NCBI GenBank assembly: GCA_000402515.1
Contig: AQRL01000038.1
Coordinates: forward strand, 37,344-101,343
DNA length: 64,000 bases
Reading direction: 5' to 3'
DNA from: Nanoarchaeota archaeon SCGC AAA011-G17
Lineage (GTDB): Archaea > Nanobdellota > Nanobdellia > SCGC-AAA011-G17
Below the pieces are notes generated by a model, which ran no database searches, was not told the origin of the DNA, and saw nothing but the letters and a program-made list of their open reading frames with translations. Position numbers and translations under genes: made by a program. Positions 40,960 to 58,700 of this stretch are shown in pieces. Position 1 is the first letter of the stretch. Each line of letters starts with the position of its first letter.

Positions 40960-42810
40960 ATGAACAAGAAGGATATTTTATTTCCCTATGATGAATTGAG
41001 GAAGGGGCAGGAGGATTTTATTGTTGATGTAAATAATTCTATTTTATTCGGTGGAAAATTAATTGGAAGTGTTCCTACTGGTGTTGGAAAGACTGTTTCT
41101 GTTTTAAGCCCTCTGGTTTCATTTGTTCTTGACAGGAATTACTGCGGTTTTTTTCTTACTCCAAAACATACACAGCATAAACTTGCTATTAATACTTTAA
41201 GACTGATAAAAGAGAGATATAAAATTAAATTTAATGCTGTTGATTTTATCGGCAAGAGGTTCATGTGCGGGCAGGAGGGGGTGGCTGTTCTGAGCAATGG
41301 TGAGTTTCATGAATACTGCAGGGATATTAGAGAGAAGGGAACATGCGACTTTTATAACAACTGTACAAACAAGAAGAGCAGTGCTAAAAAAGAATTATTA
41401 ATAGAGAGATTAAAGGAATTGGGTCCTTTGCATGTTGAGGATGTGTGCAAGCTTTGCATTGATGAAGGATTCTGCCCGTTTGAGATAAGCTGTATGATTG
41501 CCAAAGAGTCCAAAGTTATTATCGGGGATTATTACCATATTTTAAGCACTGGAGTAAGGGATGCTTTGTTTCTTAAGATTAATAAAAGTCTTGATAAGAG
41601 TATTTTGATATTTGATGAGGGGCATAATCTGATCAGCAGAGTAAGGGATTTAATGACTGTCAATCTAAGCAGTTTTATCCTGGACAATGCAATCAAAGAG
41701 GCTAATAATTTTCATTATGATGAGTATGCTGATATTTTAAATGAATTAAAAAACAAATTAGAGAATCTGAATAAAGATAAATTAAGTGTTGAGATTAATG
41801 AGGGTTTGGTCAAGAAACAGGATTTTATTTTTAATGAGCAGTATATCCAGGACTTTTCTATAATAGCTGATGAGGTCAGGGAAGTAAAGAAGAGGAGCTT
41901 TATCGGACTAGTTGGAGGTTTTTTAGAGGCATGGCTCGGGGGTGAAACAGGCTATGCAAGAATATTACAGCGTGGATTTTTAAAATCAGGAAAAGTAAAT
42001 ATCAGCCTGAGCTATAGATGTTTAGACCCTTCTTTAATTACAAAGAAGATAATTGACGAGGCCTATTCTGTAATTGTGATGAGCGGAACTTTACTGCCAT
42101 TAGAGATGTACAGGGATTTATTAGGATTTTCAGATGTTAAGATGAAGGAATATGATAATCCGTTTCCTGTTGAGAATAAATTAAGTTTAATAGTCCCTAA
42201 TATCAGCACTAAATTTACAAAGAGGAATGAGGAGATGTACAAGAGGATTGCAAATGAGGTTTCAGAGATAGTAAATAATGTTCCAGGCAATGTTGCTGTT
42301 TTTTTCCCAAGCTATAATATTCTGAAAGATGTTGACAGGTTTACTGTTATTAAAAAAACAGGATTTTATGAAAGGCAGGGGTTGACCAAAGAGGAGAGGG
42401 ATGAGGTAATTGAGAAATTCAAGAGCCATAAAGATCATGGGGGAGTATTATTTGGGGTTTCTGGCGGAAGCTTTTCAGAGGGGATTGATTTAATCGGGGA
42501 TTATCTGAAGGGAGTAGTTGTTGTTGGACTGCCGTTATCAAGACCTGATGTTGAGACAAAAGAATTGATAAAATATTATGATGATAAATTTTCTAAGGGA
42601 TGGGATTATGGATATATATTACCGGGAATGACGAAGGCAATACAGGCTTCTGGAAGATGCATTAGGTCAGAGACTGACAAGGGAGTAATTATTTTCCTAG
42701 ATGAGAGGTATACCTGGGATATGTATCACAGATGCTTTCCAAAAGACTGGGATATTAAAATAAGTAAGCTACCTGTTGAGAGAATAAATAGATTTTTTAC
42801 TTCAAAGTAG
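40960..42810 (+). CDS. xpd: XPD/Rad3-family 5'-3' DNA helicase with 4Fe-4S domain
   Basis: Walker A 'SVPTGVGKT'. Four Cys in 'FMCGQ...EYCRDIREKGTCDFYNNC'. DEAH box 'IFDEGHNL'. ~616 aa. Confidence 0.8.
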   Translation: MNKKDILFPYDELRKGQEDFIVDVNNSILFGGKLIGSVPTGVGKTVSVLSPLVSFVLDRNYCGFFLTPKHTQHKLAINTLRLIKERYKIKFNAVDFIGKRFMCGQEGVAVLSNGEFHEYCRDIREKGTCDFYNNCTNKKSSAKKELLIERLKELGPLHVEDVCKLCIDEGFCPFEISCMIAKESKVIIGDYYHILSTGVRDALFLKINKSLDKSILIFDEGHNLISRVRDLMTVNLSSFILDNAIKEANNFHYDEYADILNELKNKLENLNKDKLSVEINEGLVKKQDFIFNEQYIQDFSIIADEVREVKKRSFIGLVGGFLEAWLGGETGYARILQRGFLKSGKVNISLSYRCLDPSLITKKIIDEAYSVIVMSGTLLPLEMYRDLLGFSDVKMKEYDNPFPVENKLSLIVPNISTKFTKRNEEMYKRIANEVSEIVNNVPGNVAVFFPSYNILKDVDRFTVIKKTGFYERQGLTKEERDEVIEKFKSHKDHGGVLFGVSGGSFSEGIDLIGDYLKGVVVVGLPLSRPDVETKELIKYYDDKFSKGWDYGYILPGMTKAIQASGRCIRSETDKGVIIFLDERYTWDMYHRCFPKDWDIKISKLPVERINRFFTSK

Positions 42811-42860: not shown

Positions 42861-44123
42861 ATGGCAAAATCAAAATCTTCACAAATATCTATCTCTGCTA
42901 GAGAAGCACGAAAAGCATCTCAGAATTTTAGTAGAATTCATGGAGAAACACCAATTGTTCCTTTAGAAGAAATAGAGAGAGATGGAGTTAAATTGAACAT
43001 CTATGGTAAATTGGAAAATGTTCAATCTGTTTTTACTTTCAAAGCAAGAGGTGCCGAACATTTTGTTTATCTTCTTATGGATCAATATCATAATAAAAGG
43101 GGTATGTTTAGGAATGTTGAGAAAAAACCTGAATTGGTAACTGCTTCTGCTGGAAATCATGCACAGGGACTTGCATTAGCAGCAAATAGATATGGTTTGT
43201 ATGCAGTTATTTTTGTTCCTGAAGAAACTCCTGAAGTAAAATTAAATAGAGTCAAGGAGTTGGGTGGAAATATAGAAGTTCAAGGTATAATTTTTGATGA
43301 AAGTTTGGAAGCTGCTTTACAATATAGCAAGGGAAAACAAAATAGGATATTTGTTCCTCCTTTTGAGAGTCCTCATATTATGGCTGGTCAAGGTGGAGTT
43401 GCTGTGGAAATTTTTTCAAGAACTTGTCCTTATCATTCTGAGTATTGGAGATTAAATGGTATGAAGTGGAATGCTCCGGATGTTATTATTGCTGGATTGG
43501 GGGGAGGAGGACTTGTTAGCGGAATGGGGGCTGTGGTTGAAGAGTTCAATGAAATAACTGGTAATAAAACTAAAGTTATTGGTGTACAATCAGAAGCTGC
43601 GGATTCTATGTATAGATCTGTAAAGGAAGGTAAGTGTCTTCCGAGTACCAACATGAATGCAAAAACTTGTGCAGATGGAATTAATGTAAAACAAGCATCA
43701 CAAAGGATGATTAATACTGTAAGAAAATATGTGCATCAAGTAGTTAGAGTACCAGAGGAGAGTATTATTGAAAGTATTGTGCATATAGCAGAACATCCAG
43801 AACTTATTGATAAAAGATGGCATACTAATGAATGGTATGACCTTATGATTCCATTTAGAATATTACCTGGAGGGACACATCATGTTCATGAATATAGAAG
43901 AATGAATAGAGTAGAGGGAGCTGCGGCTGCTCCATTTGCAGCTGTTTTTTATGGAGATTTAGATGGAGAACTTGACTGGAGAAAAATAGCTGATGGTAAA
44001 AAAGAACTTGATGTCTATTGTGTCTTTACTGGCGGGAACATACCTAATGATAAATGGGTATCTTTAATAAATAAATATGGGAATGTATTTGTAGATGGAA
44101 CAACTATGAGGAAAAGAAAATGA
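42861..44123 (+). CDS. PLP-dependent threonine/serine dehydratase (threonine ammonia-lyase family)
   Basis: PLP-lysine motif 'FTFKARGA', 'SAGNHAQGLALAA', Gly-rich 'GLGGGGLVSG'. Confidence 0.7.
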   Translation: MAKSKSSQISISAREARKASQNFSRIHGETPIVPLEEIERDGVKLNIYGKLENVQSVFTFKARGAEHFVYLLMDQYHNKRGMFRNVEKKPELVTASAGNHAQGLALAANRYGLYAVIFVPEETPEVKLNRVKELGGNIEVQGIIFDESLEAALQYSKGKQNRIFVPPFESPHIMAGQGGVAVEIFSRTCPYHSEYWRLNGMKWNAPDVIIAGLGGGGLVSGMGAVVEEFNEITGNKTKVIGVQSEAADSMYRSVKEGKCLPSTNMNAKTCADGINVKQASQRMINTVRKYVHQVVRVPEESIIESIVHIAEHPELIDKRWHTNEWYDLMIPFRILPGGTHHVHEYRRMNRVEGAAAAPFAAVFYGDLDGELDWRKIADGKKELDVYCVFTGGNIPNDKWVSLINKYGNVFVDGTTMRKRK

Positions 44124-44668
44124 ACTTGTTAGAAAGAGCATGCCTGAAAATTAAACATAAAACTATTAAATGTTTAATTGGATATATATCATTAAATAAA
44201 TCTAGATACCTCAATAATAATATTGCTGATATTTCTGATGGCTACAGTTTGGTTCTGGAATTTGGATTTGGTCGTAGACTGTATGGGTATATATACAGGG
44301 ATGCAGTGAATTCTTTGGTTCTTTATAACGGAAGCCCAAAAGAGGATGCTGTTCTTGGATTTGATGCTGTTGGTAATTCTTTGAGTGTGGTTCAATTACA
44401 AGCAAGAAAGGGGATTGGTAAAGAAAATTTGCCGTATAAATGGGAAAAAATTTTATTGGAAGCAGGAATTGATTATGCTAGGGAAACTGGGTTTAAACAA
44501 ATACATGTTCAGAGAGCAAAGAATAATAAGTGGTTCTGCAAGCATGAATCTAACTCTAATGAATCTGAAAGGAACAAAAGATTAGAGATAAGATATGATG
44601 TAACTGCAAAAAGGAGAGGATTTAGTTTAGATGAAAAGTTAGATGCTTGGGTTTTGAATTTAAAATAA
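44120..44668 (+). CDS. Hypothetical protein, possibly GNAT-fold acetyltransferase
   Basis: Motif-A-like 'QARKGIGKE'. Overlaps the dehydratase by 4 nt. Confidence 0.3.
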   Translation: MNLLERACLKIKHKTIKCLIGYISLNKSRYLNNNIADISDGYSLVLEFGFGRRLYGYIYRDAVNSLVLYNGSPKEDAVLGFDAVGNSLSVVQLQARKGIGKENLPYKWEKILLEAGIDYARETGFKQIHVQRAKNNKWFCKHESNSNESERNKRLEIRYDVTAKRRGFSLDEKLDAWVLNLK

Positions 44669-44748
44669 CAAAAGAGATAGTTATAAATTTTTTTGGAAAA
44701 TCTTTATAGTACAATAATATTTATAAGTTTTATTGATATGTTATTGTT

Positions 44749-45819
44749 ATGCAAACTTCCCGCTTTATGCAACCTGGTAAAGAAGGAGTGGTTATAGCTA
44801 CCCATAATATGTATCAGGATTTTGGTAGATTATTCTTATGGTACTATGACAGACCCAGGAAATTTTATAAGGGAAATCCAGTGCATAAGCTAGTTTATCA
44901 CGATGGAAAACTTCTTGGTATGCAATTTTATAATAACCATGGTGGTTACACTAAATATGGTTTAAAGGATATTCTTGAGAACAGAGTTGTTTTTGAATCT
45001 TGTTTTAAGCATTTATATTCTGATGGAGAGAATTTATACGGTGCAAGAGAATCTGAAAAGATGATTGATGTTCATGAAGATAGTTCTTTTTATGGATATA
45101 ACCCTATAGAGATAGGGAAAATTTTTGATAATGAATTTGAAACTGATATTGTAAGACATATGTTTGTTAAATCTATTGCTAGTGAAAGTGAGAATGTATT
45201 TTTATCTGAAAGAAAATTTCCCATAGTTAGATTATCTACAGATCTTGGAGCAAGATGTGTAAGAATTTCTAAGGGGAATGAGGAAACTCTTTTGGATCTT
45301 GGAAATATCCCCCCTCCTTATTGTCTTCTTCCTACTAAAGGGGGTTTGCTTGCGGGTGTTGAGTTTGGGATATGGAATGTTACTGAAAAAAAATCTGTGA
45401 AACACTTTTCTGAGTCCCATAGATATTTTAGGGATTTGAGAGAATTAGATGGCTATAAATTAGACGGAGGAGATGTTGAATTAATAAATGATGCTCGAGA
45501 CTTTTTGAAGGAAAATGGCCTCCCATTAAACAAAGAGAGAAGCCAAAGAATCGATGACTGCTTAGTTGGAATATTAAGATATGAATTTGATGTTAGACAT
45601 ATGGTTGAATTTCAGGGTAAATTAGTTTTTTCTACCTTTCATAATTTGTATATCTCTGGAACAGAAAATCCTGTTTGGAGGTTTAGAGATTATATTGTTG
45701 GATTAGTCAGAGTGGATGATGAAGATTTGTTAAGAAAACTTAAAGGAGAAACAAATGTTAGAGGAGCTAAAAATGCCGAAGTTGTTAGCCTTCTTACAAG
45801 TATTAAATTAGCAGCATGA
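44749..45819 (+). CDS. Hypothetical protein
   Basis: ORF only. Confidence 0.35.
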   Translation: MQTSRFMQPGKEGVVIATHNMYQDFGRLFLWYYDRPRKFYKGNPVHKLVYHDGKLLGMQFYNNHGGYTKYGLKDILENRVVFESCFKHLYSDGENLYGARESEKMIDVHEDSSFYGYNPIEIGKIFDNEFETDIVRHMFVKSIASESENVFLSERKFPIVRLSTDLGARCVRISKGNEETLLDLGNIPPPYCLLPTKGGLLAGVEFGIWNVTEKKSVKHFSESHRYFRDLRELDGYKLDGGDVELINDARDFLKENGLPLNKERSQRIDDCLVGILRYEFDVRHMVEFQGKLVFSTFHNLYISGTENPVWRFRDYIVGLVRVDDEDLLRKLKGETNVRGAKNAEVVSLLTSIKLAA

Positions 45820-45900
45820 TTTGAAAATATTTATAATTCCCCTTTGGAATATAATTCAGACAATCTAAATGCTTAAGAATATTATTTTTTTTTAATAATT

Positions 45901-46653
45901 ATGAAAACTGCTTTATTATTAGCTGCTTTGACTGCTTTTAATTTGAATGCAGAAGAAACTGCTCCACTTAGTATTGCCACAAACGGAGTACATCCTTTAG
46001 AGCAGAAAATTTTAGAAAGCTCTACTAATCCTCATGGTTTTTTATTTGATGTATACTATGATAATCTTTTTTTAGATCATTCAGGATGGCTTTTGTTTAC
46101 TACCTTTAATAAAGCAGATAGCTCAAGAGTATCAATGGAATTTTCTCTGTCTTGTCCTGGTATTTTGGGATATTTTTTTGATAATATTAATAGGAATTAC
46201 AGAAGCGTAACCACAAGCGAGGATAGCTTATTCTGTGCAACAGAGAACAGCTATAATATTGGTGGAGAGAATATTATCAGTTTTTTTGAAAACCTAAGAG
46301 TATCATTGGCTGAAAAGCCATTGCAGAGCTATGATGGAGCACTGCCAGTAATTCACTACAATGTTCTGAAAGAGGTTAATAAGAAGAAATACCATTATGA
46401 ATTAAAGAGAATAGATTTGGGGTATGAATTTAAAAAAGTTGAGAAGATTTATGACAGTGATTATCTACTTGTTTCTATTCTTCCCATGAATTCTGACCAT
46501 TTCAAATCACTCTCTTTTTTTATTTCTCAGGACGTGATTATTCCGTGGATGTATGCTGATGCTGTTTTTAAATTAAGATTAGTTAACAGGGATTTTAAAG
46601 AGAAAGTATCTAAAAAAGATGAATTCTATAAATTCTTTAAGAGATTTAAGTGA
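45901..46653 (+). CDS. Secreted hypothetical protein
   Basis: Signal peptide 'MKTALLLAALTAFNLNA'. Confidence 0.35.
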   Translation: MKTALLLAALTAFNLNAEETAPLSIATNGVHPLEQKILESSTNPHGFLFDVYYDNLFLDHSGWLLFTTFNKADSSRVSMEFSLSCPGILGYFFDNINRNYRSVTTSEDSLFCATENSYNIGGENIISFFENLRVSLAEKPLQSYDGALPVIHYNVLKEVNKKKYHYELKRIDLGYEFKKVEKIYDSDYLLVSILPMNSDHFKSLSFFISQDVIIPWMYADAVFKLRLVNRDFKEKVSKKDEFYKFFKRFK

Positions 46654-46696
46654 TTATTACATAAGACAAATGCTTAAATATCTATCTTAAGATTTT

Positions 46697-47047
46697 ATGA
46701 TGATGGATAAAAATGATTATTTAACATTTGTTTGTTACCCTTCTGAATTTCTTTTAGATATCCCAAGACCAAAAGAGGCTGATAGATTGTTGCGTGGGAT
46801 TATCATAGGCCAAAGACCATTTGTAGTTATTTTTGATTACGATGGAACTGGAAAATTTAAATATAGAAGAGCCAAGACATATTTTGAATCCAAAGAAGCT
46901 TTAGAAAATATAACTGACCTAAAACTAAGAAGGAGATACGGATTTAGGATAGAGGTTAAAGAAGGGATAGTTTATCTAAATGGAGAAGAAATGAGAGTAT
47001 TTGTTGATAAGCATAGATTAGAAAGGATTGTTGAAGAAAAGTCTTAA
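46697..47047 (+). CDS. Hypothetical protein
   Basis: ORF only. Confidence 0.3.
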   Translation: MMMDKNDYLTFVCYPSEFLLDIPRPKEADRLLRGIIIGQRPFVVIFDYDGTGKFKYRRAKTYFESKEALENITDLKLRRRYGFRIEVKEGIVYLNGEEMRVFVDKHRLERIVEEKS

Positions 47048-47066
47048 ATAGTATTTTTTTATTTTT

Positions 47067-47627
47067 ATGAAAAAAGATATTAAAAAACTGGAAGAGGTAT
47101 TAATACAGGTTGGATTGAGAATTGCTAAAAGAGGAGAGGGGGCTTTATTTGTTGTTGGTGATGCAGCATACAAACCCCTTGTTGATCAGTCTGTTCCTCC
47201 TTTTATGGTTGTAGATAATCCCAAATTGCTTGAGTCCTTAGCATTGATGGATGGTGCGGTTGTTATCGACCAAAAAGGGATGCTTGAAGCTTATGGAGCA
47301 ATGATTGAATCTACTAAAACTTTCAAGAATTTCGGCACAAGGCATAGTGCTGGGATGAGTGTTTCTGAGAAAAAAGGCAATCTTGTAGTTGTTGTTTCTG
47401 AAGAAGACAGGAAAATAAGAATATTAAAAGAGGGAAAGATGATTATGCAGATTGATGCTCTGCAAAAAAATGTTGAGGGTTCTGTTGATGAGGCTGTAAA
47501 TATACTTGAGTCTGTTGGTGCTGGATTATTAGTTCCCGCACTTGGTGTAACACTATTACCCGGAATTGTAATATTCGGCTCTGCCTATTATCTTACAAAA
47601 TTATTACATAAAAAGTTTAAAGAATAG
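47067..47627 (+). CDS. Diadenylate cyclase (DAC/DisA_N domain; c-di-AMP synthase) with C-terminal TM helix
   Basis: 'GALFVVGD', 'DGAVVID', 'GTRHSAGMSVSEKKGNLVVVVSEEDRKIRILKEG' match the DAC motifs (DGA, RHR, VSEE). C-terminal 'LLVPALGVTLLPGIVIFGSAYYL'. Confidence 0.7.
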   Translation: MKKDIKKLEEVLIQVGLRIAKRGEGALFVVGDAAYKPLVDQSVPPFMVVDNPKLLESLALMDGAVVIDQKGMLEAYGAMIESTKTFKNFGTRHSAGMSVSEKKGNLVVVVSEEDRKIRILKEGKMIMQIDALQKNVEGSVDEAVNILESVGAGLLVPALGVTLLPGIVIFGSAYYLTKLLHKKFKE

Positions 47628-47639
47628 GTTTGTATAAAT

Positions 47640-47873
47640 TTATTTTTCTTTTATAATCTGTTCCATGGCTTTTTCTATTTTTGCACTCATATTATATCCT
47701 TTTTCCCTGCAGAATTTCTTAAATTTTGAGGCTATTGATTTGTCTATTGTGAAATTCAGCTTTGTTTTTGTTCTTATTTTTTTTGTTTTTTCGAATTCCA
47801 TTAGATTATTAAACAGCTCAGGGTTATTTTTTACTGTTCTCTTTGCTATTTTCAGCAGTTTATTTGATGGCAT
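47640..47873 (-). CDS. Small ribbon-helix-helix (CopG-like) protein, putative antitoxin/regulator
   Basis: 'KLNFTIDKSIASKFKKFCREKGYNMSAKIEKAMEQII' is an RHH pattern. Confidence 0.4.
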   Translation of the reverse strand: MPSNKLLKIAKRTVKNNPELFNNLMEFEKTKKIRTKTKLNFTIDKSIASKFKKFCREKGYNMSAKIEKAMEQIIKEK

Positions 47874-47909
47874 CTTTTTAGGTATGTATTTATACGTATA
47901 AATGTGTAT

Positions 47910-48185
47910 CTATTTTTTATAAACGCATTTTCCCAAGAAGGAATAGTTAACTGCTTCTTCTATAGCTATCGGCCAGCTCATAATGCTGAAGCTTTCTCTT
48001 GTTTTTCTGAAAAGCCTTAATTCCAAATCAGCTAGCTCTTCCTCAAATTCAATATTAAATTTATAATTCGGTGAAATAAAATAATAGGTTAGATAGTTTT
48101 TTTCTTCTGGATTATGGCCCTTGTAAACTGCACTAATTATTGGATATTTATCAGCAAACTTAATTAGTTCCTTTAGAATATTCAC
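47910..48185 (-). CDS. Hypothetical protein, translationally coupled to the upstream AAA ATPase
   Basis: 4-nt overlap with 48182..48994. Confidence 0.3.
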   Translation of the reverse strand: MNILKELIKFADKYPIISAVYKGHNPEEKNYLTYYFISPNYKFNIEFEEELADLELRLFRKTRESFSIMSWPIAIEEAVNYSFLGKCVYKK

Positions 48186-48994
48186 AATCTTGACCTGTTT
48201 ATTGTTCTTTTTTTAAGCGGAAATCTTGATGGAGAAATTGGAAGTTTTGGGGCTTCTAACCCCAGTTTTCTTACATCCTCGATTTTTATTTCTTTTTCAT
48301 GCTTCTCTGCTGCTTCTTTGCATAATCTGTCCAGGTTCTGAAGCATTCTTCTTGGGTTGTAATCAGACAAAATAAATACTTTTTTTACTAATTCATCTGA
48401 GATTAATTCTAATTCCCCCACCCTGTTTCTTACCAAGTCAACTGCCTCTTCTTCTGACAATTCCTTTACCTTGAATAGATTAGTTCCTATCCTTTCTTTG
48501 ATAGACTGATGGAGATTAACTTCTCTATAGTTTGTTGCTGTAAAGACAACTGATTTGATATTGCCCTGGTCAAAGAAATATTTTATTCTTTCTGTGTTTA
48601 CCGGTGTTAAATCCTGGACCTCATCAAGGAGAACAATCATGTCCTTTGGCATCATTCCGAATAATCTTCCCCAGAAGCCGTATCTTCCACGTAATAATTC
48701 CTCTATGTTTAAGTCCTGGTCTATCCTGTTGCAGGAAAAGAAGATTACCCTCTTCTGGCCCCTGTATTTAGTTATTAAGTGATGCAGAACAGAGGTTTTT
48801 CCTGTTCCTAATGGGCCTTCTATGAAATTCATTGTTCCTGCTGGAAGCTGGTAAAACAATGATTCTAATAATTTATCCTGGCCAAAGATCTTATTATCAA
48901 ACTGGCCCGGCTTTATGCTGAAGGGACTATTAAAAAAACCGTATTTTCTAAACCATAAATCCTCTTCGTGAGCTTCTTCATCAGTATCTTTCAT
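48182..48994 (-). CDS. AAA+ ATPase (archaeal ATPase/ORC-like P-loop NTPase)
   Basis: Walker A 'GPLGTGKTS', Walker B 'VLLDEVQD'. N-terminal 'KYGFFNSPF' is typical of the Arch_ATPase family. Confidence 0.55.
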   Translation of the reverse strand: MKDTDEEAHEEDLWFRKYGFFNSPFSIKPGQFDNKIFGQDKLLESLFYQLPAGTMNFIEGPLGTGKTSVLHHLITKYRGQKRVIFFSCNRIDQDLNIEELLRGRYGFWGRLFGMMPKDMIVLLDEVQDLTPVNTERIKYFFDQGNIKSVVFTATNYREVNLHQSIKERIGTNLFKVKELSEEEAVDLVRNRVGELELISDELVKKVFILSDYNPRRMLQNLDRLCKEAAEKHEKEIKIEDVRKLGLEAPKLPISPSRFPLKKRTINRSRL

Positions 48995-49009
48995 ATTTCT
49001 AATCCTCCT

Positions 49010-49462
49010 TTATAATGTTGCTTTTATTTCCCTGGCTTTCTGCCTGAATTTTTCTGCTTTTTTATGCGTTTTTTCTGCAAGGGCAGGGAATCCATCCTGG
49101 TGATATTCTTCTGCTGTTTTATGCATTTCTTCTGCCTTTTTGTAGTATTTTTCTATGTCTTTTTCAGAGTCTTTTTCCAATAATAAGTAAATGAAGTAGA
49201 TTACTAAAATGAATACAACTAAACCAATTATGTATTTTATCGGGTTCTGGATGATATTATCTTTTATTTTCTGGAAAGATGTCCTTGCTGCGTCTGTTAT
49301 TCCCGGGATTGTCTGTGCGGTTATATTGGTGTTGTTTTCTATTGAATTAACTGTCTGATTTGTTGTGTTTCCTATTAGATTAACTGTCTGATTAGTTATG
49401 TTTTCTGCATAGACCAATGGGATAAGAAAGATAAGTAATGTTAATAATAGTATTTTTTTCAA
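49010..49462 (-). CDS. Membrane protein with N-glycosylation sequon repeats (NQT/NTT/NIT) and charged C-terminal tail
   Basis: Signal/TM. 'NITNQTVNLIGNTTNQTVNSIENNTNIT'. Confidence 0.35.
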   Translation of the reverse strand: MKKILLLTLLIFLIPLVYAENITNQTVNLIGNTTNQTVNSIENNTNITAQTIPGITDAARTSFQKIKDNIIQNPIKYIIGLVVFILVIYFIYLLLEKDSEKDIEKYYKKAEEMHKTAEEYHQDGFPALAEKTHKKAEKFRQKAREIKATL

Positions 49463-49544
49463 GTTTATTCCTCCTTTTTGTTTTAATAAAAGGCTCTTAT
49501 TGTGTATTTAAATATTATTGTAGTAGAGTAATAAAATAGAAGTG

Positions 49545-49961
49545 TTATGTATGAGTAGTACTTACTTTTATTTTTGAGATAAATTCCCTTACATCCTTTT
49601 CTAATTCTTCTGTTATTGATTCAAAGACTATGGTATCATTAATTTCTCCATACTGGTGGGCAAGAATATTCCTCATCCCCTTTGCTTCTCTTAATTTTTG
49701 GCATAGTGCTTCATGAATTATTTTGTGGTCAAATAGTATTCTAAAAGCGTCAATATCATCTTCTGGGATCTCGAATTTTTTTTGTTTTATAACCATAAAG
49801 GCTAGATCTGTTATTCCTTCAATTATTTTTTCAGTGTACCTTTCGCATGCAGCTTTTAATATCTTATTTGATTTATATTCTTCAATGGTGTTAGGTATGA
49901 TTTCTTCTAGGTCTGTCAATAAACCTTCAATTTCATTTATTTTATCCTTTAATCTGCTCAA
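49545..49961 (-). CDS. HEPN-domain toxin (HepT/DUF86)
   Basis: Rx4-6H motif 'MRNILAHQYGEI'. Downstream of, and overlapping by 4 nt with, the MNT gene. Confidence 0.65.
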   Translation of the reverse strand: MSRLKDKINEIEGLLTDLEEIIPNTIEEYKSNKILKAACERYTEKIIEGITDLAFMVIKQKKFEIPEDDIDAFRILFDHKIIHEALCQKLREAKGMRNILAHQYGEINDTIVFESITEELEKDVREFISKIKVSTTHT

Positions 49962-50548
49962 GCAGCTTCACCCATTATCTTTTTCATTCTTATAAAATAA
50001 TCATTATCCTTTAAATATTTTATACTGAATGATAGGTTATCAAAACTTCCTTTTTTATATAGTATCTTGTGGTTTCTTGCTATTTCCCTTTTTATTTTCT
50101 GAGGCAGAATGTTAAATACCTGTATATCTACATTTTTAGGCAGCTCTCCTGATATTCTTATTCTAAATCTTGTTGCTTCTTCTACAGAAATATCCCTGAA
50201 TATAACACAGATGTCAATATCTGATCTTTTTGTAACTATACCCTTAACATGAGAGCCAAATAACAGTATTGCTTTAATTTCCTCTTTTAATTTATCCTTA
50301 AGCATTAATTCAACAGCCTTTTTGATTAATTTTTCAATTCCTGCTCTTTTTTTTAAATTAAATTCTTCTTTGAATGCTGAAATTTCAGAAATGAATTCCA
50401 GTTTTTTTCTTATATCTCTTGAGAGCCTGTTTTTTTCTGATTGAGTCAAGCTGATTCCGAGTAATTGTTTTTCTATTATTTTTAGCTCTCTCTCTCCAAA
50501 TATTTTTCTTGCTTTTTCATTATTCCTTAGAAAGTTTAGTAATGACAT
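49958..50548 (-). CDS. Minimal nucleotidyltransferase (MntA-like antitoxin)
   Basis: 'LLFGSHVKGIVTKRSDIDICVIF' is the NTase GS...DxD motif. Confidence 0.7.
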   Translation of the reverse strand: MSLLNFLRNNEKARKIFGERELKIIEKQLLGISLTQSEKNRLSRDIRKKLEFISEISAFKEEFNLKKRAGIEKLIKKAVELMLKDKLKEEIKAILLFGSHVKGIVTKRSDIDICVIFRDISVEEATRFRIRISGELPKNVDIQVFNILPQKIKREIARNHKILYKKGSFDNLSFSIKYLKDNDYFIRMKKIMGEAA

Positions 50549-50652
50549 CTTAAAATAACCTAAATTATGGTTATATTTAAACTTTTCTATTAATAATAAT
50601 TAGCTTTTGTCTGATTACCTTTACGAAATATTTATCTAAACTTGGGTGGTTG

Positions 50653-51312
50653 TTACCCGATTTTGTGCTTCTTCTCACAGTCATTAAGATACTTATTTCT
50701 CATCTTGTTGATTTCACGCATGATAGGCATTTCAAGACCCCTTTCTTCCAGTAAATCAAGCCTTTCTCCTATCCAGGTTATCCATACATCTTGTTTGCTC
50801 TCTTTAATCTGGTTTTTTAGTTCTTGAAGGATTGTTTTCCATTTTACTCCTATAGATACAAGGCTTTCACAGTCTTCTAAGTCGCCAGCTCTTTCAGTTA
50901 TTGTCTTGAATAAAAAAACATCTTCATTTGAACAGAGAAATAATGTTATATGCCTGAGATTAATCATTTTTCTTGCTCTTTGCATCATATCTTCTGATAA
51001 TGAAAATTTTCCGCAGACCTCCCTTTCAAAAAGGTCAATTCTATGGTCTCCTTTTTGGAATATTTGATTAAGGTTCATGTGCCTGTATTCTCTTCCGGGA
51101 ATTTTTAGTGAGAAGCCAAGTTGTTCCAATGCTCTCTGAAGCTCGATGAATTCTTTTTTTGTCGCCACAACAATATCAATGTCTTTAGTTGCCGCTTTAA
51201 TCCCCTGTTCAAGAAGCACTGTTCCCCCTATTGTATAGATATTAACTTTTTTGTACATGACCTTATCTATCTCTTTAAATAGCTCTTCAATCTGTTTAAA
51301 TTTTGATATCAT
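50653..51312 (-). CDS. Nucleotidyltransferase-fold protein (AbiEii-like)
   Basis: 'IYTIGGTVLLEQGIKAATKDIDIVV' resembles the AbiEii GGTAL...DxD motif. Confidence 0.45.
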   Translation of the reverse strand: MISKFKQIEELFKEIDKVMYKKVNIYTIGGTVLLEQGIKAATKDIDIVVATKKEFIELQRALEQLGFSLKIPGREYRHMNLNQIFQKGDHRIDLFEREVCGKFSLSEDMMQRARKMINLRHITLFLCSNEDVFLFKTITERAGDLEDCESLVSIGVKWKTILQELKNQIKESKQDVWITWIGERLDLLEERGLEMPIMREINKMRNKYLNDCEKKHKIG

Positions 51313-52187
51313 CTTATCTTTATCTTATATACAGCTGCCCTATCTTTTATCTCCTGATAGGTTGGATACCCCTTTATTGTTTTACCATCAAAAACAGCAT
51401 CTAAATTTGTGAGTATCTGATGCTTTATCTTAAATTCATTCCTGAATTTTGCATAGAACAGGGATATAAATATCAAATTTTTTATGCCCATATCTTTTTC
51501 TACGATATAAAGCGAGTGCTTTAATATGTCTTTCTTTGTAAGCTTCTTTTTTGGAAGATAATAATAATTAGTTATAGTGAGGATTTCTATTTTATAATCC
51601 TTATATGCTGAGAAAGCTGTTTTTGTAGCATCAAGCTCCTCTTTGTTTGAAAAAATAATCTCATCATTCTTTTTATAGTAAATTATTGAGCTTGCAGGAA
51701 TCCTTTCATCTATTTTAGCTTCATATTTTTTTAGCTCTTCCAAGAATTCCTTTAGTGAAGACCAGAGCTTATCATTTATCTCAAATGTCGACATATTTTT
51801 TCTTATTAAACTTCTTTTCTTTGCCTGCTCAAGCTTCTTGTATATTACTGTTTTTTTAAAACCTGTCTCATTCATTATATTTTTAATTGTTACTGGCTTT
51901 AGCATTGCTGTAAATATTGCTATTCCTGAATTAGAAAGCACAGGAGCCAGATTTGGCGTTTTTGCCAGCATTTGAAGGAGAAGAGAGATACAGGTTGTTT
52001 TTTTGGATTCATTGCCTCTTTCAATAATTTCTTTGTCTTGAAGCCTTTTAGTTGTAACATATATCTGCTTATCACTTTTTTTTAGGGCTTTCGCTAGTGA
52101 TTTTATGGATTTATTGCCATTTGCTATCTGTTCAAGCACCAATATTTCTGTTTTTGATAATTGCATAATTCCGTTAAAACGTAACAA
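51309..52187 (-). CDS. wHTH-containing protein (AbiEi-like antitoxin/regulator candidate)
   Basis: N-terminal 'LSKTEILVLEQIANGNKSIKSLAKALKKSDKQIYVTTKRL'. 4-nt overlap with the downstream NTase gene. Confidence 0.4.
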   Translation of the reverse strand: MLRFNGIMQLSKTEILVLEQIANGNKSIKSLAKALKKSDKQIYVTTKRLQDKEIIERGNESKKTTCISLLLQMLAKTPNLAPVLSNSGIAIFTAMLKPVTIKNIMNETGFKKTVIYKKLEQAKKRSLIRKNMSTFEINDKLWSSLKEFLEELKKYEAKIDERIPASSIIYYKKNDEIIFSNKEELDATKTAFSAYKDYKIEILTITNYYYLPKKKLTKKDILKHSLYIVEKDMGIKNLIFISLFYAKFRNEFKIKHQILTNLDAVFDGKTIKGYPTYQEIKDRAAVYKIKIR

Positions 52188-52409
52188 CTATATAAATCTT
52201 TCTAATTTTAGCGGAATAAATAAAAAAGAAATTATTTGTATCTGATAGTTGGCAGTTTGATAGATGAACTTACCCTCTAAAATCAAATTTTTTAAATAAA
52301 GGGTAAAGGGGAATTTATTCAAAACAAGCGTTTTTATCCCCCAGAATTGTTTGGTGCTTCATATCCCAAAATACATAATTTATATAAAGAAAAGTTAGAA
52401 TAAGATATT

Positions 52410-53024
52410 ATGGAATTAATTAAAACAATAAAAACAATCTCAAATATAATTTATATCTATAAAATAGATAATGATTTATTAGCCTTTAAACCCAGCAAAA
52501 ATATAGAAAAAGAGATATTAGCAAACAAACTGGCCAAATTGTTTAATATAGATACACTAGACATAAGGCCTGCTGAGATAAATAATAAGGAAGGAATTTT
52601 AATGCCTTACCTGAAAGACAGCAGCCTATTGATGCTTTACAAAAGGGAGCTGGATAAAAAACAAATAAGGCAGTTAAAAAGAATAATCCTATTTGATATA
52701 TGGATAGGGAACAAAGACAGGCATACAGCAAATATTTTTGTTAATCATAACTTAACTATATTTGACCATGAGAAGATATTCCAAGGCGGAAATGCAAGAA
52801 ATTTCATTAAGCTGGATATAGGAAGAAAGTTAGATAAAGATTATGTCAGCATAATTGAAAATCTGCTGGACAAGGATTTAACAGCAATGCAGGCCTTAAA
52901 AAGACTTAACTTTGGAAAAGAAGATTTTGTAAATATAAATGATGAGGATATTAAGAATATAACACAAGATGAAGAAATAAGTAATTTTTTAATTTCAAGA
53001 AAAAACTTTGATATTAGGTTCTAA
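52410..53024 (+). CDS. HipA C-terminal-like kinase-fold protein (short)
   Basis: 'ILFDIWIGNKDRHTANIFV' and 'IFDHE' resemble the HipA catalytic and DFG-like motifs. Confidence 0.4.
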   Translation: MELIKTIKTISNIIYIYKIDNDLLAFKPSKNIEKEILANKLAKLFNIDTLDIRPAEINNKEGILMPYLKDSSLLMLYKRELDKKQIRQLKRIILFDIWIGNKDRHTANIFVNHNLTIFDHEKIFQGGNARNFIKLDIGRKLDKDYVSIIENLLDKDLTAMQALKRLNFGKEDFVNINDEDIKNITQDEEISNFLISRKNFDIRF

Positions 53025-53495
53025 ATCTTTAAAAACAGCCATCAAAGCATCATCCTCTCTGCCATCCCCGATAAACCAAGATTTTATTTTAATAATTTTT
53101 TCCTGCTCTAAAAAAGATTCTGGAATATCATCGATTGCAGTAATATTATTTATATCTACATTTAAATCATCTGCTATTTTTTTAAGAGACTTTTTTCCGT
53201 TCTGCAGGTCCTCTTTCCCATATATCTTGATGAAATTGTCTAAAATATTCAATGCTTTTAATTTCCTGATAGTTATTTCTTTACTTACTACAGAAAAAGC
53301 AATCAATTTAAAGTGTTTTTTTGCCTCTCTAATGAATTCACCCACTCCAGGCCTTGGGCTAAGATAGTATTTATCAAATATTAATTTTCCTGCGTAATCC
53401 TTATAATTTTTTTTGAATTTCTCCAGAAAGAATAGCGGTTCTATATTCAGCAGGGTTTCATCAACATCCAGGACAAGAAACTTTTCTGAACTCAT
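52995..53495 (-). CDS. HAD-superfamily hydrolase (NIF/FCP1-like small phosphatase?)
   Basis: Motif I 'LVLDVDETLL'. Confidence 0.5.
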   Translation of the reverse strand: MSSEKFLVLDVDETLLNIEPLFFLEKFKKNYKDYAGKLIFDKYYLSPRPGVGEFIREAKKHFKLIAFSVVSKEITIRKLKALNILDNFIKIYGKEDLQNGKKSLKKIADDLNVDINNITAIDDIPESFLEQEKIIKIKSWFIGDGREDDALMAVFKDLEPNIKVFS

Positions 53496-53543
53496 AGATT
53501 TAAATATAGATTAATATGTTTATATAGTTAACTATAAAATAAG

Positions 53544-54893
53544 TTATTCGTATCTTGCAGATGGTTGATATTTTTTACCCTTGCCTTTTCCGAATGGGTT
53601 CTTTATAGAAACTCTTGTTAAAATTAAGATTACTAAAACTACTGATACTATGACTATTAATACTGTACTGTTATTCTTTGCTGCCCCTATAACTGCACCT
53701 GTAATTCCTGCTAATCCTCCTGTTGTTGGTGTTACTGTTTCAGTTGGTGCTACTTCTGTTGGTGTTACTGGTGTTTCTTCAGTAGTTGTTTCTGCTGGTG
53801 TTACTCCAACTCGTGTTCCACCTGCACCACCTGCATTTGTTGTTGTACTTGATGATGGTGTTGAAGTTGTTGTTGTACTTGTATCTGCTAATAATGTGAA
53901 TTTTGTAAAGTGGGACACCTTGAACTCTATTTTGTTATTTGCAGGATCTCTTACTATCTCTGTTATTCCTGCATTTGTCCAATCATTAGATGCTACATCA
54001 AAGAAGTATGGGCTTATTTTGCTTTCATCTGTAATTCCTGCTAAAGCAAGTTCTTCATCAGTATAAGTAATGGTTAATGTTACTGGCTCATTAAATACAT
54101 TTGTTGTTCCGCCATCTATCTGGAATTCAAATATTTTTGATAATACCTTTAATGTAACTGTTGTTGGGGCTGCTACAGCATTCTTTGCTATTTGCTGTAC
54201 TTTAATCCCGGTTGCTCCTGCTGGTAGTGCATTTGCTGGGATTTTAATTTCTGAACTACCTAAATTAATAGTATTTTCTACTCTCTTGTCTGTAACTGTG
54301 ACTGGTGTTTCTGGGGCGGTTACTTCAAAATTTGAAGGGCCTCTGAAATTAGCTTGGTTATCATCTGTTCCGCCATAAACTCTTGCTTCTACTTCTACAC
54401 TTTGATCAACAAATGTTCCTGGAAGCTTTGACTGGTCAATTATTAGTGTGTAGGTGATAAAGCCTGAGCCTTGATTTGGTATTGCTCCATAGCCATAACC
54501 ATATCCAAAGTTCTGATATCCATACCCATTTCCATAGCCGTAGCCATAACCATAATCCTGTTTATAATTCAAATTACTAACATCTGTTTGTACTGATGTT
54601 ATAAAGTCACAATCTGACTTATCATCTTGTATTCTACATGTAAGTTTATTATCCCCATCATTGAAGATTAAATCTGTGTATTGTATTGGAAGGAATTCTC
54701 CATCATTTATTGTTACACTAATAGTAAATGTGTATTTTGTTGGATTTCCATTCCCATCCTTAGAAAAAACATTAATATCTGGTGTTGTCAGAGAAACGTC
54801 AATTGCTCGTGCTGGACCTGAGAAAATAAGTAAGGAAATAACTGCAATTGTCAAGAAAATACTGATTATATTCTTTTTTGCATTAGTGTTCAT
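53544..54893 (-). CDS. Surface protein: signal peptide, YG-repeat domain, Thr/Pro-rich stalk, C-terminal TM anchor
   Basis: 'YGYGYGYGNGYGYQNFGYGYGYG'. 'STTTTSTPSSSTTTN...TPTEVAPTETVTPTTGG'. C-terminal TM plus 'KGKGKK'. The N-terminal domain is paralogous to 55710..58787. Confidence 0.5.
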   Translation of the reverse strand: MNTNAKKNIISIFLTIAVISLLIFSGPARAIDVSLTTPDINVFSKDGNGNPTKYTFTISVTINDGEFLPIQYTDLIFNDGDNKLTCRIQDDKSDCDFITSVQTDVSNLNYKQDYGYGYGYGNGYGYQNFGYGYGYGAIPNQGSGFITYTLIIDQSKLPGTFVDQSVEVEARVYGGTDDNQANFRGPSNFEVTAPETPVTVTDKRVENTINLGSSEIKIPANALPAGATGIKVQQIAKNAVAAPTTVTLKVLSKIFEFQIDGGTTNVFNEPVTLTITYTDEELALAGITDESKISPYFFDVASNDWTNAGITEIVRDPANNKIEFKVSHFTKFTLLADTSTTTTSTPSSSTTTNAGGAGGTRVGVTPAETTTEETPVTPTEVAPTETVTPTTGGLAGITGAVIGAAKNNSTVLIVIVSVVLVILILTRVSIKNPFGKGKGKKYQPSARYE

Positions 54894-54974: not shown

Positions 54975-55295
54975 TCAAGCAGGAATTGAAATTTTTTCCT
55001 TTAAGAGTTTTTCTGCTTCTATATTAACAACAGACCAATAATAATCTATAAACTTCTCTACCAAGGGATTATCCCTGTTTAACTTATACATCTTAGCTTT
55101 CCCAACATCCCTTGTATGTATAACTATCTCTCTTTTAATCAATTCTTTCCAGATTTCCTTTAGAGCAGTATAACTTACTTTTGAATATCCTGCAATGTCT
55201 TTCATTGAATAGTCAAATTCAGAATGAACTATCAAAAAATTCCAAATCCTATTTTTTACATTATTCCCTTCAATTTTTAAAAATGCAGATACCAT
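54975..55295 (-). CDS. Small winged-helix DNA-binding protein
   Basis: ~106 aa. 'MKDIAGYSKVSYTALKEIWKELIKREIV' has a wHTH-like layout. Confidence 0.35.
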   Translation of the reverse strand: MVSAFLKIEGNNVKNRIWNFLIVHSEFDYSMKDIAGYSKVSYTALKEIWKELIKREIVIHTRDVGKAKMYKLNRDNPLVEKFIDYYWSVVNIEAEKLLKEKISIPA

Positions 55296-55709: not shown

Positions 55710-58700
55710 TTATACACATTCCTCTGTGCTGAGATAATTAAGGAGCTTTATCATGTCGTGTATATCTGTTTTACCGTCCTGATTTACATCTGCCTTATTA
55801 TCCTCTGTGTTTAGTATCTTTAGTATTTCAAGCAAATCATAGACATCTACCTTATCATCCTTTGTTATATCTGCATACTGCTTACAGCTTGGGTTAATAA
55901 TCAAAACTGTCTTTGCTGCTGCTGCTGTTAGTGTGGCTTTTGATACCTCCAAGGTTATTCTCTGCTGCCCTGTTGTTGTGTAAAAGTGTGTTGTTGCTGG
56001 TGTATCAAGATAAGGTGTATCAAATGCGCCATCATTATTGAAGTCCCATCTGTATCTTAGTTTCTCATCACATCTCTTTGTATCAAGTAATTTTGTCAGC
56101 TTGTAAATGTCTATAGCATCAATCTTTCCGTCAGCATTTAAATCTCCCTTCTTAACAGGGGATTGTTTCGTCAAGGATAGTAATTCGATAAGGTCAAAAA
56201 TATTTATTTTATTATTTGAATCCAGATCAGCGTTCTTACACTCTGGGTCGTAACTTGAATCTGCATTTAATGTGAAATTTAATCCTATTCCTCCCTTATC
56301 CGGGGTTGATGTGAAGCTTGCTAGTATTGAGGAGAAGGAAACATCGAATCCTTCATCTATCTGTCCATCACAATCATTGTCTTTTCTATCAAAGATTTCT
56401 GTTGCTCCTGGATATGATTCTTTATTAAGATCATCACAGTCATTTGTCTTTCTTGCTGTGTAATAGCCTTCTGATTTTTCTAATTCCTTGAATCTGGAGG
56501 TTCCGTAGCCATCCTTATCAAAGTCGTAATAGAACTTGAATAATTCTACTGGCTTTACCTCTGTTTTCTTTCCCATTGTGAACAGGGATAAGTGATTAGT
56601 AATTGCCCATACATAATTCTCCTCTGTGTTTACACCTGAGTTTGGCTCCTGGACCCAGTCTTTCAGATCTTCATTATAGTAATACATACGTAATTCTGAT
56701 TCTGGAGTAGTTCCAAGATCTTCTGGATCTCTGTAATGCATCTTTAATAATGCCTGCTTGATGTCATTCTCTATCTGTGCTTCTGGTTCTATAACCATGA
56801 ATTTTTGATTTGTTAATCCGGGTAGTGTAAAGCTCTGCTCTGCTGGCATTTCATCGTATACCTTTACAGTAATGCTTCCTGATTGTTGCTCATTTGTTGA
56901 TATGCTTAATTCAAATCCTGTTTCATCTTCATTTGTTTCTATCTTTGATAGTGTTTGTTCAGCTTGTTGCAGTGTTTCTACGATTGTTGTTATTAATGGG
57001 ACTAGAACATCCTGCTTTGTTTCCATCTTTGGTGGCTCTGAGCCTATGCATGTTCCCCAAACACCTGTTGACTGACATGTCTTTGTTCCTCCGACTCCGC
57101 AGATATTTGTTGCTGCCGGCTTACAATCTTGCAATGAACCGGATTCTGAATTATCTGTTAGACTTGAGCAGTCAAGGTCGTTAAGATCTGAAAATCCGTC
57201 ATTATCATTATCTAGATTATCATTACACTGGTTTGGTGTTTCTGGGATTGGGATGATACAATTATTTCCTGATTTTACATAGCCAACGTCACAGGTGTAT
57301 TCACACTTTTGAGAAGAGCATGAAGATACTAAATTTCTTGATGCATCTGCTGTTAAACCCTTATTATCGTCTGTGCATAATCCAGAATTTGCTGGGATTA
57401 ATCCTGTACATAGTGGAGGAAGTTGTAAGGTACAACTATTTCCTGATTTTGTATAGCCAGAAGGACATATATATTCACACTTATTAGCATCAGTACAACT
57501 GTTTGCCAGACTTCTTGTTGTGTCTACTAGTAAATTCTTATTATCATCTGCACATAACTGGGCATTAGATATAGTTGCTCCTGTACATGAGAAGGTTGGT
57601 GGGATAACTGCACACTCATTTCCTGATTTTGTAAATCCTGATGAACAAGTATATTCACATTTTACAGTTGTACATGAGGATGTTAAACTTCTTGTTGTGT
57701 TTGCTGTTAATCCAGTATCATCATCTGCACATAACTGGGCATTAGATATAGTTGCTCCTGTACATGAGAAGGTTGGTGGGATAACTGCACAGACATTATT
57801 TTCATCAATCAAGTTATTACAATTATTATCTATTCCATCACATATTTCTGTTGATGGTGTGCATGTTGGCTGACAGATGTTTCCTTCATCTACATTTCCA
57901 TCACAATCATTATCTATATCATCACATTTTTCAATTCCAGGCTCTATCTCAGACTGAGTAAGCGACCATGAGCCTGAAACACAGGTGTTTATTTCTTTTC
58001 TGCATGCCCCTTCATCTGTTCCTGTTTCTGCTGTTAAATCCTCATCTATTATATTATTACAATTATCATCCTTGTTATTACAGACTTCTGCTGCTGATGG
58101 TTTTTCTCCTATACAGGCAGACCATTTTCCAGCTGTACAGGTTTGAGTTCCAAATTTACACTCTCCTGTATTTGAAGAACCACATGGCTTTGTATCCCCA
58201 CTCTGGCATTCACCAACTGTAAATGTGCTTGAATCTTTTGCATATTCAAAGGAGTTTATTTCCCCGACTGAATTTACCTTTAGCGTTGCCTTGAAATTTC
58301 CAGCTGTCAGTGATTCTGAAGAAACATCCCATGTAATTGTGTATGATAAAATACCTGTGAAGCCAAATCCGGTTCCTCCGTAGCCATAGCCATAGCCGAA
58401 TAGAGTTCCCTGGTAATTATTATTTGCACCATAGCCATAACCATATAATTGTTCACTTGTTCCATAATCCCCTGAATTTGTTCTGGTTATTGTCAGGTAA
58501 TCACAGCCTGAAACCTTTGTGCCATCTGGGTAAAAAACACATTCTTTTAAAAATGGAAGAGAATTATCATAAATCTGCAACTTTAAGGTCTGAATAGGAA
58601 TTCTTTCATTAGCTGGAATATCTATCCCTACATTGAAATTAATTGTTTCTGTTTTCAGATAACTTGCTTTGTTTGTTGTTATGCTCAAGTCTACTGCATT

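Follow-up and report, generated by a model that had tools for sequence, protein, structure and literature searches.

The window analyzed here is a 64,000-nt stretch of contig AQRL01000038.1 from Nanoarchaeota archaeon SCGC AAA011-G17 (positions 37,344–101,343, forward strand). Its positions 47640–53495 hold ten small protein-coding genes, lettered A to J in order of position. They form a D-C-B-A string that includes a membrane protein and an AAA+ ATPase (47640–49462, minus), an F-E pair of MntA-HepT type (49545–50548, minus), an H-G pair of a tandem winged-helix protein and a DUF6036 nucleotidyltransferase (50653–52166, minus), and a convergent pair of a kinase-like enzyme, I, and a phosphatase, J. 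We interpret this 5.9-kb stretch, with a probability of about 0.7, as four independently inherited small modules on a low-GC chromosome of the DPANN (Nanoarchaeota/Woesearchaeota) type. The MntA-HepT module is of an already known kind, and D-C, H-G, and I/J are conserved, uncharacterized pairs. A sequence-only reading had described the stretch as one toxin-antitoxin (TA) or defense-like island. All open reading frames (ORFs) that it named are present with their coordinates, strands, and couplings, as are the motifs and overlaps that it quoted. Its domain guesses (RHH, AAA+, MNT-HEPN, winged helix-turn-helix [wHTH] followed by nucleotidyltransferase, kinase catalytic loop, and HAD) were borne out by profile searches. 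ORF D (49010–49462, minus) had been left out, and H most likely starts at the ATG at 52166 and not at 52187.

Module independence was tested by searching 102 related loci (561 kb) with tblastn for each of the ten proteins. I+J, H+G, and D+C (with or without B) recur only as separate pairs, and, the abundant MNT/HepT-type genes excepted, the four modules are never combined in these loci. Other DPANN contigs carry each module by itself in unrelated surroundings, and the region's proteins have homologues in metagenome-assembled genomes (MAGs) of Nanoarchaeota, Woesearchaeota, Diapherotrites, and Nanobdellota. The pairings themselves are conserved far above chance, since I/J is found in 8/8 independent contexts, H-G in 7/7, and D-C in 57/65. 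Co-occurrence of the pairs elsewhere, on which the sequence-only reading had made its proposal depend, is observed.

Gene I (52410–53024, plus) encodes a minimal protein-kinase-like enzyme of 204 aa in the PI3/4K-AFK-CtkA-HipA structural group, and is a predicted active kinase-like enzyme. Invariant residues in a 23-sequence alignment are an FKP motif with the ATP-binding Lys27, E35, D103, R104, H105, N108, and D119 (FDH motif); DRHTAN lies at residues 103–108. The N-lobe residues 1–28 (MELIKTIKTISNIIYIYKIDNDLLAFKP) have no glycine-rich segment. The fold is nearest to CtkA (3akj), actin-fragmin kinase (AFK, 1cja), and PI4K type II (PI4KII, 4pla/4hnd), from which I differs in size (204 aa versus 275–480 aa) and shares 15–16% identity. 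A PDB search with the kinase profile gave no significant chain, the only match being AFK at E 0.47. To our knowledge, none of CtkA, AFK, and PI4KII is paired with an FCP/SCP phosphatase. The enzyme had been called HipA-like in the sequence-only reading, and this holds for the catalytic loop: the catalytic motif and Mg-binding Asp of HipA/HipT are also present in I (D103, R104, H105, N108, and D119). It does not hold for family membership, as I scores below the Pfam cut-offs for HipA_2 (PF20613, 24.9 bits versus 27) and HipA_C (PF07804, 17.5 bits versus 30.5), and its fold is nearer to CtkA, AFK, and PI4KII. I is also below the PI3_PI4 (PF00454) cut-off. Further differences from the HipBA and HipBST systems are its length (204 aa versus at least 279 aa), a partner that is a convergent phosphatase, and the lack of a HipB- or HipS-type antitoxin gene upstream of I, where the genes differ in each locus. 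In a survey of Hip kinases, the smallest members are 279–321 aa, and phosphatase partners are not mentioned.

The kinase family is small. An exhaustive hidden Markov model (HMM) search of 1.84 billion representatives gave only 15 kinase clusters at E≤1e-30, beyond which there were only local catalytic-loop matches. In a pattern-seeded GTDB scan, only five species genomes were matched by the kinase, four labeled DPANN and one labeled Methanosarcinales. In the latter, the kinase/phosphatase pair (locus L012, CAZFSZ010000045.1) is on an 8.6-kb contig of a MAG labeled "uncultured Methanosarcinales archaeon," a label that is likely due to mis-binning because the identity to the DPANN family is 66%.

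Gene J (52995–53495, minus) is convergent with I and encodes a HAD phosphatase of 166 aa. The HAD call of the sequence-only reading is upheld and can be narrowed to the FCP/SCP (NIF) family (PF03031, 2.3e-16, 60.3 bits versus a cut-off of 21.8). The dullard-like profile TIGR02251 matches at 4e-12, and both TIGR02251 and TIGR02250 are below their equivalog-type cut-offs. J aligns to CTDNEP1 (8ujl) at 3e-4, with DxDxT, S/T, DD, and KSWF aligned; DVDET is at residues 10–14, and the HAD motifs (DxDxT, S/T, K, and DD) are invariant in eight homologues. J is thus a clear NIF-family member, with all the HAD motifs of the FCP1/SCP/Dullard (CTDNEP1) group. Characterized FCP/SCP (NIF) members are phosphoprotein phosphatases, and those known to us are all eukaryotic.

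J is convergent with and directly 3′ of I in all eight independent contexts (the window and seven others), down to 40% kinase identity. The other flanks differ in every context, and the NIF phosphatase is the only conserved neighbor. In the window, the 3′ ends of I and J overlap by 30 nt (52995–53024). The overlap is 30–33 nt in 6/8 loci (the window, L001, L003, L011, L012, and L013). In L005 it is 11 nt, and in L014, which is the most divergent locus, the genes are separated by 31 nt. Adjacent kinase and phosphatase genes with shared substrates are a known arrangement, for example, the bacterial Ser/Thr pair PrkC/PrpC. The prokaryotic pairs known to us join a Hanks kinase and a PP2C phosphatase in a single operon, whereas the partners in these DPANN archaea are a PI3/4K/AFK-like mini-kinase and an FCP/SCP HAD phosphatase whose genes are convergent and overlap. 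A kinase-phosphatase pair of this type was not found described in literature searches. I and J probably act on one and the same phosphorylation mark, written by the kinase and erased by the phosphatase; it is most likely on Ser/Thr, and the shared target is probably a protein. The convergent, 3′-overlapping layout could make their expression levels reciprocal.

Gene H (51309–52166, minus) encodes a double winged-helix protein of 285 aa and is coupled to G by a 4-nt overlap. A longer ORF is present at 51309–52187; the start at 52166 is most likely, because homologues are 285–288 aa and a TATA-like box (52190–52197) is inside the longer ORF. The homologues cover 97% of the query, number more than 232, are almost constant in length, and are 47–99% identical; they are from Nanoarchaeota, Woesearchaeota, Diapherotrites, and Nanobdellota. 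An AlphaFold2 model (pLDDT 87) has two winged helices, and the C-terminal domain, which is conserved, is alpha/beta-plus-helical. Gene G (50653–51312, minus) encodes a nucleotidyltransferase of 219 aa that matches DUF6036 above cut-off (1.8e-8); its only Pfam matches are DUF6036, DUF2204, and GrpB. The GG-x13-DID signature is at residues 29–46 and K..R..D..D at residues 136–147, and G29, G30, D44, D46, D93, K136, R141, D144, and D147 are invariant in four homologues. With its catalytic signature intact, G looks active. A PDB sequence search with the G profile gave no match. H is coupled to G in all seven contexts (the window and six independent ones), down to 48% identity and into Diapherotrites. 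In each of the six further contexts, a coupled DUF6036-type gene of 218–222 aa comes directly after the H homologue, and the flanks are otherwise unrelated in every context.

The sequence-only reading had compared H-G to AbiEi/AbiEii. This comparison stands for the architecture and operon layout. As in AbiE/MenAT type IV TA systems, the first gene encodes a wHTH protein whose C-terminal domain is large, the second gene overlaps it and encodes a nucleotidyltransferase, and the hG[GS]x9-13DxD signature is also in G. The likeness is architectural only, with no detectable homology to AbiEi or AbiEii. G has no AbiEii/DUF1814 (PF08843) match, and H falls outside the AbiEi family, AbiEi_2 reaching no better than E=0.021. 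On a Diapherotrites contig (L016, 7172–9087), a genuine AbiEii of 370 aa (PF08843) is encoded downstream of a gene of 268 aa. In hhalign comparisons, the G family aligned to this true AbiEii with a probability of 0.4%, and the G and H families aligned to the genuine AbiEii and AbiEi-like pair with probabilities of <1%. The AbiEii pair of L016 is 0.6 kb from an H-G homologue pair; both types of nucleotidyltransferase pair therefore coexist. H-G is most likely AbiE/MenAT-like in logic and not in ancestry. Most likely, H regulates its own operon and binds or controls G through the conserved C-terminal domain.

The divergent H/I intergenic region (52190–52388) holds two TATA-like boxes, read from sequence, at 52190–52197 for H and 52379–52388 for I. 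Each is about 26–28 nt from its ATG, and they are putative promoters of H and I. An inverted repeat (TACCCT ... AGGGTA) with a 23-nt A/T-rich loop is at 52271–52305 between them and could be an operator or a hairpin; it has no match in Rfam.

Gene C (48182–48994, minus) encodes an AAA+ ATPase of 270 aa of the initiator/clamp-loader type (AAA_14, 1.6e-8, above cut-off). It consists of a P-loop base and lid without a winged-helix domain, with GPLGTGKT at residues 60–67 and IVLLDE at residues 120–125. A conserved N-terminal motif, W..K.GF..NPFSIKP, is specific to the family, and W14, P24, P29, G63, G65, K66, D124, and R191 are invariant. A family profile built from 25 sequences matches DnaA (1.5e-5), RFC3 (5e-5), and, more weakly, Cdc6 and Orc1; the PHROG match is to a clamp loader (2e-7), and a PDB search with the single sequence gave P-loop matches only. 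C aligns with DnaA, RFC3, and Cdc6 over the base and lid (184–210 residues), and one homologue was named "Cdc6-like" by JGI annotators. C differs from Orc1/Cdc6, DnaA, and RFC in having no C-terminal winged-helix or DNA-binding domain, in its unique N-terminal W..GF..NPF motif, and in the position of its gene, which is 3′ of a gene for a TPR-tailed membrane protein and often tandemly duplicated. After the lid, C has a low-complexity tail, and no winged-helix domain of the Orc1/Cdc6 family was detected in it. Homologues of C number 84, are 34–99% identical, and are found in Nanoarchaeota/Woesearchaeota MAGs. An ExeA/GspA-like reading of the N-terminal motif was considered, and the JGI annotation of one homologue uses that name. 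In many homologues, the C terminus is acidic and closes with aromatic residues (...EEDLY, ...AEKYY), and C-terminal zinc ribbons are present in a few. For these acidic-aromatic tails, a HbYX or TPR-clamp role was considered; it does not apply to the ATPase of the window, which has no such tail.

Gene D (49010–49462, minus) encodes a type-I single-pass membrane protein of 150 aa with a signal peptide, an ectodomain rich in N-X-S/T (six sequons), one transmembrane helix at about residues 75–96, and a cytosolic tail of 45 aa. The tail is a single TPR-like helical hairpin that matches consensus TPR proteins, HOP, Pfam TPR_2 (8/14 members), and DUF1771 (9/14). A 33-nt tandem duplication (82% identical) at 49325–49390 in the ectodomain encodes repeated N-X-T sequon-rich segments. 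In three divergent contigs (L007, L008, and L009), a D homologue is always 5′ of the ATPase gene on the same strand, 1–16 nt apart. A metagenome scan gave 80 further ATPase loci, 65 of which have at least 300 nt of upstream sequence; several of the close loci are from Hainich groundwater samples (Hain-H41/H43/H51). Using a D-tail HMM, a D-like protein was found upstream on the same strand in 57 of these 65 testable loci, in 55 within 60 nt. Two tandem paralogous ATPases follow D in 33/80 metagenome loci; the tandem loci are among more distant relatives and include L049, L054, L058, L061, L075, L076, L084, L091, L095, and L097. D would be a glycosylated membrane protein whose cytosolic TPR-like hairpin tethers or regulates C at the membrane.

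The sequence-only reading had named B, the 91-aa ORF at 47910–48185 (minus), as the partner of the ATPase. This does not hold: B is found only in close relatives, and the conserved partner is the omitted membrane protein D. The start of B overlaps the ATPase stop by 4 nt (GTGA), and B is annotated as a gene in the NCBI record. Searches of Pfam, NCBIfam, PADLOC, and PHROGs gave no match for it. Only loci whose ATPase shares at least 70% identity (L007/L020, L018, and L019) carry B, and L021, L008, and L009 do not. B diverges faster than the ATPase (about 70–76% versus 91–98% identity); at an ATPase identity of 98%, that of B is 70%. Two tandem B-like ORFs are 3′ of a 91%-identical ATPase in L019 (957–1535). 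B is thus best described from these comparisons as a lineage-specific, fast-evolving accessory protein limited to close relatives.

Gene A (47640–47873, minus), the last of the D-C-B-A string, encodes a solo DNA-binding protein of 77 aa with weakly supported RHH/Arc-like character (PHROG Arc-like repressor, 3.8e-5). Further profile matches are below cut-off (DUF6364, 6e-4; RelB/ParD, 0.016), and the β-strand motif KLNFTID is at residues 38–44. No toxin gene follows A, and no homologue of A was found by tblastn in any of the 102 related loci. A may be a leftover of a TA pair, because at the same position, downstream of D-C-B, L007 holds a pair of a DUF7557 (RHH-like) protein and a ParE toxin (7097–7577).

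Gene E (49545–49961, minus) encodes a HepT (HEPN RNase) toxin (PF01934, 2.2e-27, 95.6 bits versus a cut-off of 23.5; NF047751, 94.5 bits versus 60), and gene F (49958–50548, minus) encodes an MntA adenylyltransferase antitoxin of 196 aa (Polbeta, 6.9e-15; NTP_transf_2, 5.8e-10; NF047752, 60.4 bits versus a cut-off of 60; PF18765, 55.4 bits). The mnt gene F is 5′ of the hepT gene E, with a 4-nt overlap of the F stop and E start. HepT/MntA type VII TA systems, such as SO_3166/SO_3165 of Shewanella and CL1_0071/0070 of Thermococcus cleftensis, are defined by an RX4HXY motif in the toxin and a GSX10DXD motif in the antitoxin (PMC7641770). Both motifs are present here, as RNILAHQY at residues 97–104 of E and GSHVKGIVTKRSDID at residues 98–112 of F. 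The MNT-HEPN call of the sequence-only reading is therefore confirmed: with profiles above curated cut-offs, both signature motifs, and the mnt-first order, F-E is predicted to be a canonical class I type VII TA pair. It differs from those described in the length of F, as MntA proteins are described as <150 aa (PMC7641770) and F has an N-terminal extension of about 85 aa without a domain match. Fusions of wHTH and MNT followed by ORFs of 130–147 aa recur in related contigs. The HEPN RNase E would be held inactive through AMPylation of the Tyr of RX4HXY by the upstream GSX10DXD nucleotidyltransferase F. A second, orphan MNT-type nucleotidyltransferase of 180 aa with an N-terminal HTH-like region is encoded at 58878–59420 (minus). 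It is 39% identical to F over the nucleotidyltransferase core, and no ORF for a HEPN partner is downstream, where the next gene encodes a 1025-aa surface protein.

The region could be read as a single, horizontally acquired defense or TA island whose components cooperate in antiviral defense or addiction. One true TA pair (MntA-HepT) is present, with a TA-like wHTH-nucleotidyltransferase pair and an RHH protein, and HepT/MNT-type pairs adjoin H-G homologues in four other contigs (L015, L017, L099, and L100). Weak PADLOC matches were also found for the ATPase (AbiO/Nhi, 5e-6), the MNT protein (PDC-S09, 3e-10), and the kinase (PDC-M66A, 3e-7). These are partial, low-scoring matches of single components to P-loop or catalytic-loop fragments; B, E, G, A, and J had none, and the scan of all ten proteins against PADLOC-DB v2, a check that the sequence-only reading had proposed, gave no complete system. 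GC content is low, about 30–35%, throughout the window, with no compositional break at 47.6–53.5 kb. No tRNA or integrase border was seen, repeat searches for island borders gave only AT-rich chance matches, and an Rfam scan of 47000–54000 gave nothing above noise. Viral-contig scans with the profiles of three families (kinase, ATPase, and H) found no copy. In many loci with an ATPase of about 46–66% identity, an XPD gene is convergent and just 3′ of the D-C module, and in the window it is 5 kb from the module. XPD keeps this place across lineages, and the setting is a conserved chromosomal one and not a mobile island. With the modules also never together elsewhere, we regard the single island as highly improbable. 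What survives of it is the one TA pair and some clustering of TA-like genes around H-G, which the HepT/MNT-type pairs near H-G in several contigs show to be real. That clustering weighs against four independent modules, as do several other points. The neighborhood samples are small (n=7 for H-G and n=8 for I/J). What the analysis shows is which genes are present, their domains and folds, the intact state of the catalytic motifs, and the strict conservation of the pairs across varied contexts; all proposed protein-protein contacts are inferred, as are substrates, any toxicity, and control by antisense transcription. The conservation of H and G is unusual, with uniform length and about 50–65% identity across orders, which fits a housekeeping role as well as a TA role. 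A clamp between the TPR tail and the ATPase cannot be general, because the window ATPase has no acidic-aromatic C-terminal tail of the kind seen in many homologues.

For H-G taken alone, a TA-like role and a housekeeping regulator-enzyme role are about equally likely. H-G as a DPANN housekeeping operon, in which, for example, a dedicated transcription factor controls a nucleotidyltransferase whose substrate is an RNA or a protein, has somewhat less than an even chance. It would account for the more than 232 H homologues of near-invariant length and 47–99% identity across four DPANN groups, for both genes being intact in 7/7 contexts, and for the undetected AbiE homology, and it has a parallel in another DPANN MNT-HEPN family that Makarova et al. 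found to be TA-like yet unusually conserved and housekeeping in context (PMC6393860). Against it, the flanking genes differ in each context, as with mobile modules, the pair adjoins bona fide TA genes in four contigs, and the wHTH-to-nucleotidyltransferase order with a 4-nt overlap is the AbiE/MenAT layout. Three further proposals concern I/J. In the widest of these, which is tentative and on balance unlikely, I/J is an undescribed, DPANN-restricted phospho-switch built from eukaryote-like parts, a PI4KII/AFK-type kinase and a CTD-phosphatase-type HAD, with antisense-coupled reciprocal expression from the convergent, overlapping genes, and D-C and H-G are two further lineage-wide DPANN modules; such a switch could be either a new enzymatic TA type or a regulator of the symbiont life cycle. 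It is quite unlikely that I/J is simply a new enzymatic TA system, in which an essential target, for instance an aminoacyl-tRNA synthetase, is phosphorylated by a toxin kinase of HipA-like type and dephosphorylated by an antitoxin phosphatase: I is below the HipA cut-offs with a fold closer to CtkA, AFK, and PI4KII, its 204 aa are fewer than the 279–321 aa of the smallest Hip kinases, and the Hip survey mentions no phosphatase partner. The genes are moreover convergent and not an operon, and the family is small, confined to DPANN MAGs, with a steady 40–70% identity and both genes intact in every locus. There is a similarly slim chance that the pair acts on a lipid or small molecule, for example, in a membrane inositol-lipid kinase/phosphatase cycle, and not on proteins. 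The best structural matches of I, CtkA and AFK, are protein kinases, J belongs to a family whose characterized members are phosphoprotein phosphatases, and neither protein has an evident membrane-binding segment. Searches of the literature on DUF6036, PF20613/PDC-M66/PDC-M03, PF03031 in archaea, and DPANN kinases and phosphatases turned up no description of these modules.

The gene that abuts the region at 47067–47627 (plus) encodes a DAC (diadenylate cyclase) protein of 186 aa (1.5e-19) with a hydrophobic C-terminal segment, which by its domain match would make c-di-AMP in this DPANN archaeon. Other neighbors include the XPD-type helicase (40960–42810) and a pyridoxal phosphate (PLP) enzyme. 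Between the PLP enzyme and the DAC gene are four consecutive ORFs of 182, 356, 250, and 116 aa (44120–47047, plus) with no Pfam match at E≤0.001. On the other side, two genes encode large secreted or anchored proteins of 449 aa (53544–54893, minus) and 1025 aa (55710–58787, minus) that have a common N-terminal region. GYGYGYG-type repeats are present in both, and Cys-rich repeated modules are present in the 1025-aa protein. Neither the 449-aa protein nor the small 106-aa ORF between the two large genes (54975–55295) has a Pfam match.

Coupled pairs that lie together need not be a defense island. Most DPANN archaea are uncultured, and much of what their small genomes hold lacks annotation; three modules from this stretch, D-C, H-G, and I/J, are strictly conserved and directly testable. 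In D-C, one or two Cdc6/RFC-like ATPases accompany a TPR hairpin anchored in the membrane, beside XPD. H-G is TA-like in looks and conserved like a core gene. I is among the smallest protein-kinase-like enzymes, and if I and J regulate a shared target, the pair would be a compact model of how phosphorylation is reversed in archaea with reduced genomes, and minimal enzymes could be drawn from it.

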